Positions 2,219-21,506 of a stretch of DNA of 21,506 nt are shown in pieces (within the stretch, counting starts at the first letter, position 1; the number at the start of each line of letters is the position of its first letter). The notes under the pieces were generated by a model that was not told where the DNA came from, searched no databases, and saw only the letters and a list, made by a program, of their open reading frames with translations. Location: the NCBI GenBank assembly GCA_039934135.1, contig JBDTMT010000022.1, positions 1-21,506 on the forward strand, given 5' to 3'. A program made the translations under genes and the position numbers. Source of the DNA: a bacterium (GTDB lineage: Bacteria > Desulfobacterota > Binatia > HRBIN30 > CADEER01).

Positions 2219-2841
2219 GTGGGCAAACGCGGCCCGCGCAGGCGCGGCTCGGCGACCACCAGCGTCCAGGGGAATGACGTGACGCAGCGATGGACGCGCA
2301 GCTCCGCTCCGACGAACGTCGCGAACTGCCGCCTCGACCAGTGCTGGACGTGGCCGGGGTCGTTGCCGAACGCCGCGACGTTCTTGCCGCGCAGAACATT
2401 CGCCAGGCGGAAGTACGGCTCGTGCGGAACCGTGCACACGACGTAGCGGCGCGCCACACGGCCAAGCTCGCGCAGCCCGTCCGCCGGCTGCGGGAGATGT
2501 TCGAGCACCTCGGTGGTGAGCACGACATCGAAGGCCGCGTCGGCATACGGCAGTCGCGTGACGTCGGCGCAGACCCGCGGCACGCCGGCGGGAAAGACGC
2601 CGGCGAATAGCAGCGCCGACAGCTCCCGATCCGTGGCGATGAGCCGCGCTGCACCGACGTGGGGCGCGAGACGCGCCAGGGTGAACCCCTCGCCGCTGCC
2701 GGCGTCGAGCAAGGTTTCAAACTCGAGCTCGCGCAGCAGCCCGATCAGTGTGGCGTAGAAGCGGTCGATGAGCAGTCGCTGCAGCGGATTGGTCGAGGTG
2801 TGCTTCCTGGCGTTGTCGGACAGGCCAGGCGCACTAGCCAT
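2215..2841 (-). CDS. Class I SAM-dependent methyltransferase (small, 208 aa).
   Basis: It has the motif I LLDAGSGEG (a Rossmann SAM-binding G-x-G-x-G), an acidic post-motif (TDRE) and a VLTTEVLEHL motif consistent with class I methyltransferases. The start ATG at 2841 overlaps the upstream GT2 stop by 8 nt (ATGGCTAG). The stop shares a CTAG with the convergent LamG gene stop. Confidence 0.8.
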   Translation of the reverse strand: MASAPGLSDNARKHTSTNPLQRLLIDRFYATLIGLLRELEFETLLDAGSGEGFTLARLAPHVGAARLIATDRELSALLFAGVFPAGVPRVCADVTRLPYADAAFDVVLTTEVLEHLPQPADGLRELGRVARRYVVCTVPHEPYFRLANVLRGKNVAAFGNDPGHVQHWSRRQFATFVGAELRVHRCVTSFPWTLVVAEPRLRGPRLPT

Positions 2842-3796
2842 GCGAGACTCGGCGCGCAGGGCGCGCGACGGGCGTGTACTCTTCGCATAGGGCAGCGTTG
2901 TGCGGCGGGCTCGCGGCGCGGCGCTGCTCGGCGAGCAGGCCGGCGACCAGGCATTGCCCCATCAGCACGACGATCACCCCGGCGAGCGCCGCTAGCCAGA
3001 CGCCGCTGAGGTGCACCACGCCGAGCCGGTCGAGCCCCAGCGCGGCTATGCACAGCAGCGCCGCCGCCCCCGCGCCGCTCAGCGCCAGGACGGCGAAGAA
3101 GTGCAACGGTCGATCGCGATAGCGGGTCAGCAGCAGCACGGTCAGCAGATCGAGCAGCGCCTTCGGTAAGCGGGTGCCCCCGTACTTCGAGGCGCCGTGC
3201 CGCCGCGGACTGTGGCGCACGTCGATCTCGCCGATGCGCGCGCCGAGCCCCTGAGCGAAAACCGGGATGAAGCGATGCAGTTCGCCGTACGGATGCAGTT
3301 GTTCGATCAGCTCGCGGCGGTAGGCCTTGTAGCCGCAGTTGACGTCGTGCAGCGGCACGCCGAAGACGCGCCGCACAACGGCGTTGAACAGCCGCGAGGC
3401 GACGACCTTGCCGCGCCGATCCCGGCGCAGGCGTTTGCGGCCCGAGACCAGGTCGAACCCGGCGTCGATGGCCGCGACAAAGCGCGGCAATTCGGCTGGA
3501 TCGTCCTGCAGATCCGCATCCATCGTCACGACCACATCGCCGCGCGCCGCGGCGAACCCGGCCGCCAGAGCGGCGGCCTTGCCGTTGTGCGTGCGCAGGC
3601 GCAGCACCCGCACGCGCGCGTCGACGTCGGCCAGCGCCCGCAGGGCCTCGAGCGAGCCGTCGCTGCTGCCGTCGTCGACGAAGAGGATTTCCGACTCGCC
3701 ACCCAGCCCGTCGAGCGCCAACCCCAGTTGCGCGGCGAGCGGCGCCAGGCTGCGGCGCTCGTTGAACAGCGGAATGACGATGCTGAGCACATTCAT
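2834..3796 (-). CDS. GT2-family polyprenyl-phosphate glycosyltransferase (ArnC / GtrB / DPM1-like) with two C-terminal transmembrane (TM) helices.
   Basis: It carries the signatures VIPLFNE, ILFVDDGSSDGS and TMDADLQDDP (the DxD-type catalytic motif of ArnC/DPM1-like enzymes) plus GRKRLRRDRRGK. The C-terminal hydrophobic helices (FFAVLALSGAGAAALLCIAALGL...VVLMGQCLVAGLL) match the GtrB/ArnC architecture. The start is taken as the internal ATG at 3796, which forms an ATGA overlap with the stop of the upstream membrane-protein gene. The ORF itself extends to 3838. Confidence 0.85.
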   Translation of the reverse strand: MNVLSIVIPLFNERRSLAPLAAQLGLALDGLGGESEILFVDDGSSDGSLEALRALADVDARVRVLRLRTHNGKAAALAAGFAAARGDVVVTMDADLQDDPAELPRFVAAIDAGFDLVSGRKRLRRDRRGKVVASRLFNAVVRRVFGVPLHDVNCGYKAYRRELIEQLHPYGELHRFIPVFAQGLGARIGEIDVRHSPRRHGASKYGGTRLPKALLDLLTVLLLTRYRDRPLHFFAVLALSGAGAAALLCIAALGLDRLGVVHLSGVWLAALAGVIVVLMGQCLVAGLLAEQRRAASPPHNAALCEEYTPVARPARRVSHG

Positions 3797-5466
3797 GGCG
3801 GATTGCCGCCTTCTGCCGCGTCGCGCCGCGGTGGGCAAGGCGGCGGCAGGCCGTTCGGCCAGGGTTGCGGTGTGTCGGCGGTGCGCAGGGCGCGCACGGG
3901 AATGGCGCCGAAGCGGCCGATTTCGACGTAGGCGCTGTCGATGTACGCGATGATGCGCGCCGAGTACGCGGCGAAGAGCCGATCCTCGCGGTTGTCGAGC
4001 ATGCGCGAGCCGTCGCCGAGCACCAGCGGCACGTGTTGGCGGCGCACCGTGTCGATCCAGCGCTGCTGGTCCGCCTCGGTGCTGAAGAAGCCCGGCGACC
4101 AGGCCGGCTGTGCGCCGCCGAAGCGTCGGTCGGAGAAGTAGTAGGCGCCGATCAGCGGCGGCAGGGCGATGAGGTGATCACCCGCCTCGGTGCAGCGGCG
4201 CACGTACTGAATCGCCTGCACCAGCGTGTCGGCGGGATTCTCCGCCGTCAGCTGCGCCAGCAGTGCGTCGCGCGGCATGGCGTGCACGCGCCACGCGCGC
4301 AGGCCGGCGCCGGCGTTGGGGCTCGGCCAGCCGCTCATGCCCATGGCCGCCCGGAGCCCGACCATGAGCACGCCGCCGAGCACCACCGTAGCCGCGATCG
4401 CCCATGCGGTTGCCCGGCCGCGCCGCGCTGCCGCGGCCGACCAGATACGTCCGGCGAACCAGGCGCAGAGCACGAAGCAGAGCGCGATCGCCTGCAACAG
4501 GTGGGTGTAGTCGGAGCGATGCGCCGCATGCATCAACACGGCCTGCGCCATGACGGCTGCCGTCGCCAGGCGTCGCCGTTCGGCGACGGCGCGGCAGACA
4601 CCGGGCCACAGTGCCGCGACCAGCGCGAGCGGCGGCAACGCGTAGAAGCTGACGAAGAGCAGGAAGGTCGCGTTGGCTGGCGCGGCCAGCGGCTTCGTCC
4701 CGTCGAACGATGGGAAGGGCAGCGCCATGCCACTGGCGTGGCGCGGTCCATTGATCAACGTGTCGGCGATGTAGGTGCCGAGCCCACCGCGCCACGCCAA
4801 CCAGATCAGCCACGGCGCCGCCCAGACCGCGACCAACGCGGCGAGCTGCGCCAGGCGGAGCGCGGGCCGACTCGCCGGCCCGGGTCGACTCGCGACCGCG
4901 ACCGCGGCGCCGAGGCCCGTGAAAGCGCCGAAGTCGGCGCGAAACAACGCCGTCGCCGCGACGGCCGCGGCGAGCAGCCACAGCGAGCGAGGCGACGGCC
5001 GCTCGATCTCACGCCACGCCGCCCACAGGCAGACCACCGGACCGAGCACGGCGTAGTACTTGTACAGACGCGGCGCGAGCACCAACGCGACAAACAACAG
5101 CAGCGCGGCGATTACTCTGCTGCCGCCGGCGATCCACATGAGGCGGAACAACACCGCATACGCGAGGCTGTACGCGGCGCTGACCAGGCACAGATCGGCG
5201 AGCGGACAGGCGCCCAACAGCCATTGCGCCAGCGCGCTCGGGTAGTAACGCAGCGGACCGTAGTCGGTGTGCCAGTCGACGAACGGGTACTCGCCGTGCA
5301 GGATCTGATTCGCCCCGCCGAGCTGGTGGACCCAATCGCCGTCGATCGCCAGCACCGCCGGCGTCGGCCAGCGCAGCGCCATCCAGACCAGCGTGATCAG
5401 CGCCACCACCAGCAGCGTGCGCACGACGCGCGACGTCGATTCGGAATCGAGAAGCGACGCGCTCAT
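3793..5466 (-). CDS. Polytopic integral membrane protein, putative GT-C-type glycosyltransferase (ArnT/PMT_2-like), partner of the adjacent GT2 enzyme.
   Basis: There are at least 10 predicted hydrophobic helices, for example LLVVALITLVWMAL, VIAALLLFVALVLAPRLY, LWLLAAAVAATALF and FLLFVSFYALPPLALVAAL. A candidate acidic loop motif (AIDGDW) sits in the first extracytoplasmic loop. The C-terminal ~150 aa form a soluble domain. The start is chosen at the ATG at 5466 (MSASLLDSES...) because a GAGG sits upstream and because the ORF's upstream extension to 5724 would overlap the GST gene ending at 5525. The stop overlaps the GT2 start (ATGA). Confidence 0.7.
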   Translation of the reverse strand: MSASLLDSESTSRVVRTLLVVALITLVWMALRWPTPAVLAIDGDWVHQLGGANQILHGEYPFVDWHTDYGPLRYYPSALAQWLLGACPLADLCLVSAAYSLAYAVLFRLMWIAGGSRVIAALLLFVALVLAPRLYKYYAVLGPVVCLWAAWREIERPSPRSLWLLAAAVAATALFRADFGAFTGLGAAVAVASRPGPASRPALRLAQLAALVAVWAAPWLIWLAWRGGLGTYIADTLINGPRHASGMALPFPSFDGTKPLAAPANATFLLFVSFYALPPLALVAALWPGVCRAVAERRRLATAAVMAQAVLMHAAHRSDYTHLLQAIALCFVLCAWFAGRIWSAAAARRGRATAWAIAATVVLGGVLMVGLRAAMGMSGWPSPNAGAGLRAWRVHAMPRDALLAQLTAENPADTLVQAIQYVRRCTEAGDHLIALPPLIGAYYFSDRRFGGAQPAWSPGFFSTEADQQRWIDTVRRQHVPLVLGDGSRMLDNREDRLFAAYSARIIAYIDSAYVEIGRFGAIPVRALRTADTPQPWPNGLPPPCPPRRDAAEGGNPP

Positions 5467-5524
5467 CCTCGTCGCCTCACGCGGCGGCGATCGGACCGGC
5501 GCGGCACCGCCTGCGCGGCCTGCC

Positions 5525-6154
5525 TCACGCGGCGGCCGCGGGCGTCGGACTGGTCGACTGCACCGCCGGACGAGCTCGCAGACGCTCGACCCAGGCCCGC
5601 ACCGCCGGCCGCGGCTCGAGCAGATGTGCCAGCCCACACGCGGCCAATTCACAGACCAGCGGCGCATAGGCGACATCGGCCAGCGAGAAGGTGCCGACGA
5701 TGTAGTCGCCGCGCCCGAGCACACCTTCCAACACGTCGAGGTGCTCGCCGAGCTCGTCAGCGGCGCGCGCCTGATCGTCGCGGTCCCACGCCGACTCGGG
5801 CAGGAACAGGCGCGTCAGCCAACGCTTGAAGGGCGGCGCGAAGTAGTCGCCCGAGGCGAGCATCCACTGCCGCACCTGCGCCCGTTGCGCCGCATCGGCC
5901 GGCAACAGCGCCGGTAGCGGATGGCGCTCTTCGAGGTACTCGAGGACCGCCAGCGACTCGCAGATGACCAGACCGTCGTCCTCCAGCACCGGCACCTGGC
6001 CAAACGGATTCAGCCGCCGGAAGGCCGCGCCGCGCGTCGCGCCACCCGGCAGGTCGACCTCAACCTCCTCACAGGCGATGCCCTTCTCGCGTACCGCAAT
6101 GCGCACGCGACGCGGGAACAGCGAAAACGGATGCCAGTGCAGGCGCATGACCAT
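5525..6154 (-). CDS. Glutathione S-transferase (GST).
   Basis: It has the N-terminal thioredoxin-like GST domain (MRLHWHPFSLFPRRVRIAVREKGI...FGQVPVLEDDGLVICESLAVLEYLEE) and the C-terminal alpha-helical GST domain. Confidence 0.85.
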   Translation of the reverse strand: MVMRLHWHPFSLFPRRVRIAVREKGIACEEVEVDLPGGATRGAAFRRLNPFGQVPVLEDDGLVICESLAVLEYLEERHPLPALLPADAAQRAQVRQWMLASGDYFAPPFKRWLTRLFLPESAWDRDDQARAADELGEHLDVLEGVLGRGDYIVGTFSLADVAYAPLVCELAACGLAHLLEPRPAVRAWVERLRARPAVQSTSPTPAAAA

Positions 6155-16081: not shown

Positions 16082-16690
16082 TCAGGCCGCGGCGCTCGGC
16101 CGCTGCTTGAACGCGGCGTGCCAGCGACCGACGTTCTGCAGGCCGGGATCGACGGGGATCTCGGCGAAGGCGGCCATCTCCAGTGCCGCGAACAGCGTGC
16201 AGTCGGCAATCGTCGGCTGCGCACCGCAGACGAAGGGCTGGTTGCCGATCTTGGCGTCCAGGACCTTCAGGTTGGTCGCCAGGCGCAGCCGGCCCTGCTC
16301 GGCGGCATCGGCTGACTGCTTCACTCGGGCGGCGAAGAACGCGTGCGTGTTCTGGAACACCGTCGCGATGCCGAACAGCACGCCGAGCTCGCAGATGCGC
16401 TCGGTGGCGCGCACCCGCGCGCGCTCCACGGCGCTGGTGCCGAGCATCGGCGGCGTCGGATGCAGCTCCTCGAGGTACTCGATGATCGCCAGTGATTCGG
16501 TCAGGTGACTGCCGTCGTCGAGTTGCAAGACCGGCAGACCGCCGAGCGGGTTCTTCTGCAGAAAATCGGGCTTGCGGTTGGCGCCATTCATCACGTCGAC
16601 CTGCTCGACGGGGATCTCCAGACCCTTCTCAGCCAGATAGACGCGCACCTTCTTCGGATTCGGGGCCAGGGCGAAGTCATAGAGTTTCAT
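16082..16690 (-). CDS. Glutathione S-transferase.
   Basis: It has the N-terminal GST thioredoxin-like domain (MKLYDFALAPNPKKVRVYLAEKGLEIPVEQVDVMNGANRKPDFLQKNPLGGLPVLQLDDGSHLTESLAIIEYLEE) and the C-terminal helical domain. A strong RBS, AAGGAGG, lies 7 nt upstream of the ATG. Confidence 0.85.
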   Translation of the reverse strand: MKLYDFALAPNPKKVRVYLAEKGLEIPVEQVDVMNGANRKPDFLQKNPLGGLPVLQLDDGSHLTESLAIIEYLEELHPTPPMLGTSAVERARVRATERICELGVLFGIATVFQNTHAFFAARVKQSADAAEQGRLRLATNLKVLDAKIGNQPFVCGAQPTIADCTLFAALEMAAFAEIPVDPGLQNVGRWHAAFKQRPSAAA

Positions 16691-16813
16691 GTCCAGTCCT
16701 CCTTGTCGGTGTCCTCGGGGCTTAGCGCGTCGGCGTCAACGGCGCGAGCGCTACGACCGGCTCAACCGTTCGCGCACGGGCAACCGTCAACGCCGTGTGA
16801 TAGCCGCGGCGCG

Positions 16814-18034
16814 ATGGAGGAGCTGTCGGTCGAACGCCAGGATAGGCTGCGCGCGGCGCTGCGCCGCAACGGCCTGGTGCGCCGACCGGAGATCCTGCGC
16901 CGCTATCTGCGGCGCCACGGTCTGCGCTTCACCGAGGGCAACCGCGTCCACATCTTCGCCACCGGCGACGCCGGCCTCGCCGCCATGCTGACGGCGATCG
17001 AGGGCGGGACGCAGCGCATCCACCTGGAGACATACATCCTGCGCGCCGACGCCATCGGCCGCCGCTTCCTGGCGGCGCTGACGCACAAGGCGCGCGGCGG
17101 CGTCAGCGTGCGCGTGATCTACGACGCCGTCGGTTCGCTGAGGCTCGATCCGGTGGAGCTCGACGCCCTGCGCGACGCGGGTGGACAGGTGCTGCGCTTC
17201 AATCCCCTGCGCCACCTGTATCCGCAGTGGCTGCCGCGGCGGCGCGACCATCGCAAGATCCTCGTCGTCGACGGCCGCGTCGGCTTCACCGGCGGACTCA
17301 ATATCGGCGACGAGTACAACGCCGGCCCCGGCAGCCACCGCGCCATCTGGCGCGACACGCACCTGCAGGTCGAAGGCCCGGCCGTGCAGGATCTCGAGGC
17401 GGTCTTCCTCGAGAGCTGGTTCCGCTCCGACGGCTCGGATCTGCCGTGGGGCCAGATGCTCGGCGGGCCGCCGCCGGCCGTCGACGGCGAGCGCGTCTCC
17501 GTGGTCGCCGACGGTCCCTCCTATCGCCACCGCGTCGTGCGCGATCTCGTCCTGCTCGCGCTCGCCACGGCGCGCCGCAGCGTCTGCCTGACCAGCCCCT
17601 ACTTCGCGCCCGACGTGAAGGTGCTTTCCGGGCTGGCGCGCGCCGCGCGCCGCGGCGTCGCGGTGACGCTGCTGCTCGCCGGCCGCACCGATCATCCAAT
17701 TCTGCGCCGTGCGACGCGCAGCCTGCTGCCGCGCCTGCTCGATGCCGGTGTCGTCGTCTACGAAGTCGACGCCGCCATGCTGCACGCCAAGACCACGGTG
17801 CTCGACGACATCTGGGCCATGGCCGGCACCTCGAACCTCGATCGCCAGAGCTTCGAGCGCAGCTACGAGGTCAACCTCGTCATCGAAGGCGGCGACGTGC
17901 CGCGCCAACTGGCGGCGCTCTTCGATGCCGATATCGCCGCGGCGATCCGCCTCGACGCCGCCCGCCTGGCGCGCCGCACTCTGCCCGAGCGACTCCTCGA
18001 CCGCATCTGCGCGCTGGTGCTGTGGATCGTCTGA
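16814..18034 (+). CDS. Phospholipase D-superfamily protein / cardiolipin synthase (ClsB-like, no N-terminal TM segment).
   Basis: Two HKD motifs are present: HRKILVVDGRVGFTGGLNIGDEY and HAKTTVLDDIWAMAGTSNLDRQS. The start is chosen at the internal ATG 16814 (MEELSVERQ...) because the ORF's upstream extension to 16505 would overlap the oppositely oriented GST gene. Confidence 0.85.
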   Translation: MEELSVERQDRLRAALRRNGLVRRPEILRRYLRRHGLRFTEGNRVHIFATGDAGLAAMLTAIEGGTQRIHLETYILRADAIGRRFLAALTHKARGGVSVRVIYDAVGSLRLDPVELDALRDAGGQVLRFNPLRHLYPQWLPRRRDHRKILVVDGRVGFTGGLNIGDEYNAGPGSHRAIWRDTHLQVEGPAVQDLEAVFLESWFRSDGSDLPWGQMLGGPPPAVDGERVSVVADGPSYRHRVVRDLVLLALATARRSVCLTSPYFAPDVKVLSGLARAARRGVAVTLLLAGRTDHPILRRATRSLLPRLLDAGVVVYEVDAAMLHAKTTVLDDIWAMAGTSNLDRQSFERSYEVNLVIEGGDVPRQLAALFDADIAAAIRLDAARLARRTLPERLLDRICALVLWIV

Positions 18035-18962: not shown

Positions 18963-20150
<1,188 letters not shown>

Positions 20151-20233
20151 CGACCGCACCGCGCGACCGGTGATCGGACCGTTCCGGGCCACGCTGCCGA
20201 ACCGATCACTGATCACCTTCCTGGAGGATCTGA

Positions 20234-20620
20234 ATGGCGAACTCAGTCGGCTACCACGAATCCGAAGACAAACTGCTCGGCGAAACGCAGGACAACCATC
20301 GCGCCCTCACCTCCATGCAGGAGGAGCTCGAAGCGGCCGATTGGTACGATCAGCGCGTCGACGCGGCAGATTGTCCCGAGCTCAAGGCGATCCTGAAGCA
20401 CAACCGCGACGAAGAGGTCGAGCATTTTACCATGCTGCTCGAGTGGCTGCGGCGGCGCGATGCCAAGTTCGCCGAGCAGCTCAAGGAACGACTGTTCACC
20501 AGCGGCTCCATTGTCGCGCAGGAGCAGTCCGAGAAGGGCGGCGGCGCCGGCGCCGCGGCGACGCCGGCCGGCGGCGGCTCACTCGGAATCGGCAGTCTCA
20601 AGGGAGGACAAAGCCTGTGA
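20234..20620 (+). CDS. Encapsulated ferritin-like protein (EncFtn / Flp) with a C-terminal encapsulin cargo-loading peptide.
   Basis: The core (RALTSMQEELEAADWYDQRVDAADCPELKAILKHNRDEEVEHFTMLLEWLRRRDAKFAEQLKERLF) matches the EncFtn ferroxidase-centre pattern (EEL...E.EH). A Gly/Ala-rich flexible linker leads to a C-terminal GSLGIGSLKG targeting peptide, which is the canonical Family-1 encapsulin cargo signal. A GGAGG RBS lies 6 nt upstream. The stop overlaps the encapsulin GTG start (GTGA). Confidence 0.9.
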   Translation: MANSVGYHESEDKLLGETQDNHRALTSMQEELEAADWYDQRVDAADCPELKAILKHNRDEEVEHFTMLLEWLRRRDAKFAEQLKERLFTSGSIVAQEQSEKGGGAGAAATPAGGGSLGIGSLKGGQSL

Positions 20621-21426
20621 ACAATCTCCGACGCGAACTGGCGCCGATCTCCGTCCCGGCCTGGCAGGCAATCGATACGGAGGCGCGGCGCGTCCTCAAG
20701 CTCGAGCTCGCCGGCCGCAAAGTGGTCGACCTCAAGGGCCCGCTCGGCCCTGAACACGCGGCGGTCAACACCGGTCGCATCACGCCGCTGAAGGGCGGAC
20801 CCGTCGCCGGCGTCACTGCGGCGCGCCGCGAGGTGCTGCCGATGGTGCAGCTCATCGGCGAGTTCGAGCTGTCGCGCGCCGAGCTCGACGCCGTCGAACG
20901 CGGCGCCGAGGATCCCGACCTCGGCGCGCTGGTGCAAGGCGCGTCGCGCATCGCGCAGGCCGAGGACACGGCGGTATTTTACGGCTACGCCGCCGGCGGC
21001 ATCCGCGGCATGGCGGAAGCCTCGCCGCATGCGGCGTTGCCGATCGCCGACGACTACAACACCTATCCGAAGACCGTCGCCGAAGCGCTGCGTTTGCTGC
21101 GCGTCGCCGGCGTCGACGGGCCGTACGCCCTGGCGCTGGGCCCGCGCTGCTACACCGGCCTGATGCAGTCGACCGGCGACGGCGGCTACCCGGCCCTGCA
21201 GGTGGTCAAGCGCATCGTCGAAGGGCCGATCATCTGGGCCCCGGCGGTCGACGGCGCCATCGTGCTCAGCACGCGCGGCGACGACTTCGAGCTCACCGTC
21301 GGCCGCGATCTGTCGATCGGCTATCGGAGCCATTCCGAGACGACGGTGAAGCTGTATTTCACCGAGACCATGACCTTCCGCGTCCTGACGCCGGAAGCCG
21401 CCGTGGCCCTCGTCTACAAGAAATGA
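20617..21426 (+). CDS. Family 1 encapsulin shell protein (HK97 fold, Linocin M18-like), 269 aa, a length consistent with a T=1 shell.
   Basis: From its GTG start (VNNLRRELAPISVPAWQAIDTEARRVLKLELAGRKVVDLKGPLGPEHAAVNTGRI...), the protein aligns along its full length, including the C-terminus (...GGDFELTVGRDLSIGYRSHSETTVKLYFTETMTFRVLTPEAAVAL), with canonical encapsulins. A GGAGG lies 8 nt upstream of the GTG. The ORF's in-frame upstream extension from 20170 overlaps EncFtn and is not native. Confidence 0.92.
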   Translation: MNNLRRELAPISVPAWQAIDTEARRVLKLELAGRKVVDLKGPLGPEHAAVNTGRITPLKGGPVAGVTAARREVLPMVQLIGEFELSRAELDAVERGAEDPDLGALVQGASRIAQAEDTAVFYGYAAGGIRGMAEASPHAALPIADDYNTYPKTVAEALRLLRVAGVDGPYALALGPRCYTGLMQSTGDGGYPALQVVKRIVEGPIIWAPAVDGAIVLSTRGDDFELTVGRDLSIGYRSHSETTVKLYFTETMTFRVLTPEAAVALVYKK

Positions 21427-21443
21427 CCAACAGTCGACTTTCA

Positions 21444-21506
21444 GTCGACTTTGATCACGGTCATCATGCCCGACTCAGCATGTTCAAGGATGTGGCAGTG
21501 GAGCAT
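21444..21506 (-). CDS. C-terminal 21 codons of a multicopper oxidase (laccase/CotA/CueO-like); the gene enters from beyond the window end.
   Basis: The minus-strand reading ...MLHCHILEHAESGMMTVIKVD-stop contains the diagnostic C-terminal copper-binding signature HCHxxxHxxxGMM (type-1 / trinuclear copper ligands). The stop TGA is at 21441-21443. This partial gene is not in the ORF track because it is shorter than the cutoff. Confidence 0.55.

Follow-up and report, generated by a model that had tools for sequence, protein, structure and literature searches.

Genomic evidence for an EncFtn-type Family 1 encapsulin operon of two genes in an uncultured Binatia lineage

Among the described encapsulins that enclose an encapsulated ferritin (EncFtn), the system of Rhodospirillum rubrum consists of EncFtn (Rru_A0973) and its shell protein (PDB 5da5, 33bf, 9ry4, 9rzu), which form 24-nm particles, and crystallography and mutagenesis have assigned the di-iron ferroxidase centre of this EncFtn to Glu32, Glu62, His65 and Tyr39 and a second metal (entry) site to Glu31 and Glu34 (He et al. 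2016, PMC5012862). In Haliangium ochraceum (PDB 7odw, 7oe2), decameric EncFtn is loaded into a T=1 Family 1 shell via a C-terminal localisation sequence (Ross et al. 2022, PMC8791618). The encapsulin of Thermotoga maritima (maritimacin, PDB 3dkt) with its cargo Flp also combines a 60-subunit shell (PMC5012862) and a ferritin-like cargo whose C-terminal peptide is bound within the cleft of the P-domain. Larger shells are found in Myxococcus xanthus (EncA, T=3, with the cargo EncB/C/D) and Quasibacillus thermotolerans (T=4, PDB 6nj8, with the cargo IMEF), both of which are iron-mineral-storing HK97-fold shells of Family 1; the T numbers of the H. ochraceum, M. xanthus and 6nj8 shells are those of PMC11202242. 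Here we describe a locus at the end of a 21,506-nt stretch of DNA (positions 1 to 21,506, the full length of contig JBDTMT010000022.1, assembly GCA_039934135.1; hereafter the window) from the metagenome-assembled genome (MAG) of a bacterium of the class Binatia (Desulfobacterota), where a gene for a 128-aa EncFtn is directly followed by a gene for a 269-aa shell protein. With high confidence, we regard this locus as an operon of two genes that encodes a Family 1 encapsulin system of the EncFtn (Flp) type, the counterpart of Rru_A0973 EncFtn and its shell in R. rubrum.

The locus has the same two-protein architecture as that of R. rubrum, whose proteins are also its best solved matches, in both cases from end to end: 33bf/5da5 for the cargo (E=1e-38, 60% identity by BLASTP) and 9ry4 for the shell (E=2.7e-83, 54% identity by BLASTP). 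The ferroxidase and entry-site residues and the targeting peptide are identical in the two EncFtn proteins. However, the linker of the window EncFtn is shorter and richer in Gly/Ala, only four residues instead of eight or so come after its targeting peptide, and the window shell is without the 5-residue insertion that the R. rubrum shell carries after residue 56. Unlike R. rubrum, the host is an uncultured MAG, and the particle predicted from its genes would be expected to measure about 24 nm with 60 subunits as in R. rubrum. The H. ochraceum pair is more distant than the R. rubrum pair (E=9.6e-74 for the shell and E=2.1e-28 for EncFtn), the T. maritima encapsulin is considerably more divergent (E about 6e-45), and the window shell does not group with that of either M. 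xanthus or Q. thermotolerans. The targeting peptide of T. maritima presumably differs from that of the window.

Shell protein and encapsulated ferritin

The shell protein matched the complete model of Pfam PF04454 (Linocin_M18; 286.8 bits, cut-off 24.3, E=1.6e-85, model 1–253 of 253) and likewise that of NF041155, an equivalog of NCBIfam (family 1 encapsulin nanocompartment shell protein; 307.4 bits, cut-off 100, E=7.6e-92, model 1–261 of 261). No other Pfam domain was detected in it, and its first residue is aligned with the first residue of the solved Family 1 shells. The N-terminal extension and the inserted cNMP-binding domain, which are features of Family 2, are absent, as is a fused cargo domain, and the shell gene is adjoined, through a 4-nt overlap, by a dedicated cargo gene whose product bears a targeting peptide at its C-terminus, as is characteristic of Family 1. 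The start of the shell gene at 20617 was set by the alignment of its first residue to the solved shells (MNNL vs MNDL) and by the deposited 269-aa protein, while the frame itself stays open upstream as far as a GTG at 20170 (418-aa open reading frame, ORF). This extended ORF (20170–21426) was rejected as a by-product of the 69% GC sequence, the homologues and the deposited protein starting at 20617, and a 327-aa antisense ORF (20350–21333) was rejected as a by-product of the same base composition.

Compared with four relatives, the shell gene has 68–94 substitutions at codon position 3 and 15–25 at position 2, and its GC content at third codon positions (GC3) is 0.90; this third-position bias is consistent with purifying selection on the shell. 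Since the HK97 fold is common to encapsulins and phage capsids, and the two can be confused in sequence searches (PMC8346489), the gene could in principle be the capsid gene of an HK97-type prophage, or a decayed remnant of one, instead of an encapsulin. We give this reading next to no credence, and consider it effectively refuted by the full-length match to the Family 1 equivalog at three times its cut-off, by the 54% identity to a solved encapsulin, and by the cargo gene with its targeting peptide directly upstream of the shell. Furthermore, the shell ORF is intact and under purifying selection, no phage genes were found in the window, whose other genes, dnaE, guaA and that of IMP dehydrogenase among them, are of the chromosomal housekeeping kind.

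The cargo encoded ahead of this Family 1 shell passed the cut-offs of Pfam PF22277 (EncFtn-like; 118 bits, cut-off 27, E=1.5e-34) and NCBIfam TIGR04535 (encapsulin-associated ferritin-like protein; 128.6 bits, cut-off 125). In the phmmer alignment against 33bf/5da5, its residues stand in register with Glu31, Glu32, Glu34, Trp38, Tyr39, Glu62 and His65 of R. rubrum EncFtn. The stretch EELEAADWY supplies E30, E31, E33, W37 and Y38, and the stretch EEVEH supplies E60, E61, E63 and H64; from the register with R. rubrum, E31, Y38, E61 and H64 are predicted to form the ferroxidase centre and E30, E33 and W37 the entry site. The alignment supports an intact ferroxidase centre in the window EncFtn, and the 60% identity to R. 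rubrum EncFtn suggests that the protein could form a decameric ring with a ferroxidase activity that depends on the shell for the storage of iron.

The targeting peptide GSLGIGSLKG is letter for letter the same in R. rubrum EncFtn, as seen in the phmmer alignment. The locus was further compared with 25 related loci (L001–L025, 237 kb in total), in 23 of which the cargo/shell junction is readable. A GSL-x-IGSL-[KR]-G-like motif was present at the cargo C-terminus in all of the related loci with a readable end, mostly as GSLGIGSLKG and otherwise as the variants ALGIGSLKG, SLYIGSLRG, SLDIGSLKG and SLGIGNLKG. In the six-frame translation of the window, no plausible gene contained a second targeting-peptide-like motif (LGIG, IGSL, GSLK, TVGSL). 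A first-pass annotation of the window, made from its letters, had proposed a 269-aa HK97-fold Family 1 shell and an encapsulated ferritin of about 128 aa with a terminal GSLGIGSLKG peptide. The shell is borne out by PF04454 and NF041155, both well above cut-off and full length, and the cargo by PF22277, TIGR04535 and the E/E/H ferroxidase residues that align with R. rubrum. The peptide itself was also rightly read, following a Gly/Ala linker and being the same as in R. rubrum, but it is near-terminal and not terminal, with four residues (GQSL) trailing behind.

With regard to shell geometry, matches of the window shell to those of R. rubrum, Klebsiella pneumoniae, H. ochraceum, Mycobacterium tuberculosis and T. 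maritima ranged from E=1e-83 to 1e-42, whereas those to M. xanthus EncA (T=3) and to 6nj8 (T=4) reached E=1e-17 and E=1e-9, respectively. The shells of K. pneumoniae and M. tuberculosis are here taken to be T=1. Because the window shell is much closer in homology to shells taken as T=1 than to the T=3 and T=4 shells, a T=1 cage of 60 subunits and about 24 nm is its likeliest geometry. The first-pass annotation had drawn T=1 from the chain length of 269 aa; the conclusion agrees with the homology, but the argument from length is weak, given that chain length is uninformative on T (280 aa in the T=1 shell of R. rubrum vs 282 aa in the T=4 shell 6nj8), and the T number is set by how the E-loop is arranged (PMC11202242).

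The sequences themselves show family membership, the catalytic and targeting residues, and how the genes are arranged and conserved. The workings of the compartment, from assembly and T number through ferroxidase activity and the storage of iron to translational coupling, may be pictured as follows by analogy with the homologues. The 269-aa shell protein would self-assemble into an icosahedral HK97-fold cage, most likely of 60 subunits (T=1, about 24 nm), while the 128-aa EncFtn would form decameric rings, with di-iron ferroxidase centres built across dimer interfaces from E31, E61, H64 and Y38. As the shell assembles, the flexible Gly/Ala linker and GSLGIGSLKG could dock EncFtn on its inner face. 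Fe(II) would enter via the shell pores and be oxidised by EncFtn, and the Fe(III) mineral would be kept in the lumen, so that iron storage and protection from oxidative stress could be the outcome. Ribosomes ending EncFtn probably re-initiate on the shell gene, the GTG of which lies over the cargo stop with the Shine-Dalgarno sequence in the peptide codons, and the two syntheses would thereby be coupled.

Nothing was found that contradicts the identification of the two genes as encapsulin and EncFtn. Nevertheless, some points weigh against the picture as drawn here. EncFtn passes TIGR04535 only narrowly, and the T number is not derivable from sequence alone. No promoter- or terminator-like site that would bound the transcription unit was found in a scan of 19800–21506. 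Beyond that, the search for cargo spanned the 21,506-nt window, and other cargo elsewhere in the genome is possible.

Table 1. Features of the encapsulin locus and its immediate neighbours in the window
Feature	Position	Strand	Details
Thiolase gene	18987–20150	+	387 aa; Thiolase_N and Thiolase_C; NF005889 571.9 bits, cut-off 515
Shine-Dalgarno sequence of EncFtn, GGAGGA	20223–20228	+	Read from sequence; 5 nt ahead of the ATG
EncFtn cargo gene	20234–20620	+	128 aa; ORF map and profiles; deposited as MEO8601461.1
Targeting peptide GSLGIGSLKG, residues 115–124	20576–20605	+	phmmer alignment; Gly/Ala-rich linker before, GQSL after
Shine-Dalgarno sequence of shell, AAGGGAGGA	20600–20608	+	Within the K-G-G codons ending the targeting peptide; distance to the GTG 9 nt
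GTGA overlap	20617–20620	+	Shell GTG (20617–20619) over cargo stop TGA (20618–20620)
Family 1 encapsulin shell gene	20617–21426	+	269 aa; HK97-fold, capsid-like; stop 21424–21426; deposited as MEO8601462.1
Multicopper oxidase gene, last 21 codons	21441–21506	−	PF07731 26.5 bits, cut-off 20.4, model 114–134 of 137

The junction between cargo and shell genes

The GTG start of the shell gene overlapping the cargo stop, from which the first-pass annotation had read coupled translation, is real and is widely shared. An RTGA start/stop overlap was found in 22 of the 23 readable related junctions, the one left (L012, ATGATGA) being ambiguous, and the 4-nt overlap of cargo and shell also appears in the gene calls of L016–L025. 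Upstream of the overlap, a GGAG/GAGG/AGGA core lies 11–14 nt before the shell start in 12 of 13 scanned sequences (the window and 12 loci), and the core was also seen in L016–L021. The conserved overlap and the conserved Shine-Dalgarno position support, from comparison of the loci, translational coupling of cargo and shell, in line with the earlier claim; the fixed cargo-to-shell ratio that it also drew from the overlap is an inference.

The K-G-G codons (AAGGGAGG) of the window cargo are dual coding, as they double as the ribosome-binding site of the shell gene, which is directly seen in the sequence. This suggests that the peptide sequence and the translational coupling would constrain each other. 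In L003, the peptide reads RRS instead of KGG while the Shine-Dalgarno sequence AGAAGGAG is retained, a pattern that hints at constraint on the ribosome-binding site and not on the peptide alone. The near-universal 4-nt overlap, together with a Shine-Dalgarno sequence inside peptide codons, provides an example of coupled expression and could inform the design of heterologous operons. As for the cargo gene, a purine tract of the GGAGGA/GGAGG type precedes the EncFtn start in three of four aligned upstream regions (the window, L001 and L005), and the purine tract of the fourth, L006, is offset in the alignment.

Neighbouring genes of the operon

The distances to the neighbouring genes are as the first-pass annotation had given them: the thiolase gene ends 83 bp (20151–20233) upstream of the cargo ATG, and the convergent multicopper oxidase (MCO) gene has its stop end 14 bp (21427–21440) beyond the shell stop. 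Upstream, the gene order of the window (IMP dehydrogenase, hexapeptide protein, hydrolase, glutathione S-transferase (GST), EEP, thiolase, EncFtn, shell) is as in L016, bar a cardiolipin-synthase gene. This cardiolipin-synthase-like phospholipase D (PLD) gene (16505–18034, + strand) stands between GST and EEP in the window and in L001 and is absent from the otherwise syntenic L016. From the GTG listed as its start, it shares 186 nt with the GST gene, and TIGR04265 is matched from residue 128 on; the real start codon probably lies further downstream.

In L001, L005, L006, L016, L019/L020 and L021, as in the window, EncFtn is directly preceded on the same strand by a thiolase gene. Together with the 83-bp spacer, in which no promoter-like site was found, and the spacer of just 12 nt in L019/L020, the outer flanks of which differ from those of the window, this distribution raises the question of whether thiolase, EncFtn and shell make up a three-gene functional unit with the thiolase metabolically tied to the compartment. 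We consider such a unit improbable: the thiolase is missing upstream of EncFtn in L002/L010, L004, L009 and L022–L025, as well as in the more distant systems L003, L011 and L012, and a motif scan of the window translation found no targeting peptide in the window thiolase. The spacer is poorly conserved save for the Shine-Dalgarno sequence, hairpin-forming repeats in the spacers of L001 and L005 may separate transcripts, and the distribution of the gene agrees with local synteny inherited in a single lineage. That the thiolase–EncFtn–shell block was selected as a three-gene unit rather than inherited as synteny, for which its retention in L019/L020 amid other outer flanks speaks, is slightly less probable still; if true, a thiolase of the beta-oxidation or steroid-side-chain type would be linked to iron sequestration in this uncultured lineage. 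The thiolase is a frequent but dispensable neighbour and no component of the compartment. EncFtn and shell genes may be co-transcribed with it.

In L019/L020 (3493–5004), a 74%-identical system with other outer flanks, the thiolase stop lies 12 nt before the EncFtn start, and the thiolase, EncFtn and shell genes of these loci are likely to share a transcript. The window spacer contains an imperfect 13-nt inverted repeat (20165–20177 / 20202–20214) that folds no better than its shuffles would suggest (z=-0.52). Hairpins of GTGACCG-type 7-mer repeats occur in the L001 spacer (5499–5598; fold -68.7 kcal/mol, z=-3.0) and hairpins of GCCGGTGCGCC-type repeats in the L005 spacer (280–366; z=-3.4). 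A conserved regulatory hairpin in the thiolase–EncFtn spacer was considered and rejected, with the repeats differing by locus and only the Shine-Dalgarno sequence conserved; the spacer hairpins of L001, L005 and the window look like lineage-variable repetitive extragenic palindromic (REP)-like or terminator elements. No Rfam match for a structured RNA was obtained at gathering thresholds anywhere in the window.

On the downstream side, the MCO is known here from a stub of 66 nt and 21 residues, as the contig ends at 21506 and no N-terminus is present. On the reverse strand, the fragment reads MLHCHILEHAESGMMTVIKVD up to its stop codon and holds the C-terminal copper-binding motif HCHxxxHxxxxM of Cu-oxidase_2 (MLHCHILEHAESGMM). 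Scans of metagenomes and genomes returned only relatives of ≤84% identity, and the MCO gene was not extendable. In most close relatives, the gene convergent to the shell encodes the GTPase Der (EngA), which was confirmed by Pfam in L001, L004, L005, L008, L016–L018 and L021–L023. The synteny of the window with its relatives (L001, L004, L005, L007, L008, L016–L018 and L021–L023) breaks in the last 80 nt (21427–21506), at the MCO stub; this break at the contig end could reflect a genuine rearrangement or a join made during assembly.

Some multicopper oxidases show ferroxidase activity, and the C-terminus of the MCO is encoded 14 bp from the shell stop, so the MCO might be a functional partner of the encapsulin, e.g. 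a ferroxidase supplying or complementing the compartment, or might itself be cargo. For an anammox encapsulin, which is unrelated, one paper has proposed an MCO as core cargo (PMC6934571). Such a partnership is highly unlikely for this locus, whose pairing with the MCO the first-pass annotation had said might be functional or coincidental. The motif HCHxxxHxxxGM was found in none of the 25 related loci in the 237 kb searched, and no Cu-oxidase Pfam family was found among the called genes of L016–L025, while the Der GTPase gene usually occupies that position. Because it is transcribed convergently, the MCO gene lies outside the operon, and the C-terminus of its product (...GMMTVIKVD) is without a targeting peptide. 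The pairing further depends on the 66-nt stub with which a MAG contig closes, at a synteny break and possible assembly join, and a large survey of encapsulin operons contains no mention of multicopper oxidases (PMC8346489). The MCO is a convergent neighbour and not part of the encapsulin system, and the proposed link can be dismissed.

An 8-nt palindrome, AGTCGACT, occurs twice, 3 nt apart (21432–21439 and 21443–21450), spanning the shell–MCO spacer and the MCO stop codon. Between the convergent genes, the paired AGTCGACT palindromes could fold into a short hairpin; they have no T-tract, and the terminator scan was negative.

Annotation, distribution and other observations

Both genes of the operon carry correct names in GenBank on this very contig, where MEO8601461.1 ("encapsulin-associated ferritin-like protein") is an exact match of the 128-aa cargo and MEO8601462.1 ("family 1 encapsulin nanocompartment shell protein") an exact match of the 269-aa shell, and both proteins pass the NCBIfam cut-offs used by the Prokaryotic Genome Annotation Pipeline (PGAP). 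The locus had been presented as unannotated, which is not the case. The accompanying remark that such genes would normally be missed or labelled linocin does not apply to GenBank but fits older pipelines, as in Joint Genome Institute (JGI) records, where "uncharacterized linocin/CFP29 family protein" is the label on many homologues.

At E≤1e-40, public data contain more than 5,000 homologues of the shell, and the MAGs that hold its close relatives bear the labels Deltaproteobacteria, Candidatus Binatia and Methylomirabilota. The EncFtn encapsulin system is a common one in this uncultured lineage of soil and sediment. The locus is a standard, already known and already annotated member of a well-characterised iron-oxidation and iron-storage family, so that its significance is modest and for the most part one of bookkeeping.

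Two further observations concern other genes. In L024/L025 (3131–3451), which are of the Methylomirabilota type, genes for a DUF411 protein and a cupin are located 1–2 kb upstream of the EncFtn operon; DUF411, which we take to be a CopG-like metal-binding family, is not an MCO. Far from the operon in the window, a 643-aa ORF (3793–5724, − strand) with a coding-like GC3 of 0.87 and no Pfam match at E≤1e-5 adjoins a GT2 glycosyltransferase gene (2834–3838) and a methyltransferase gene (2215–2841).

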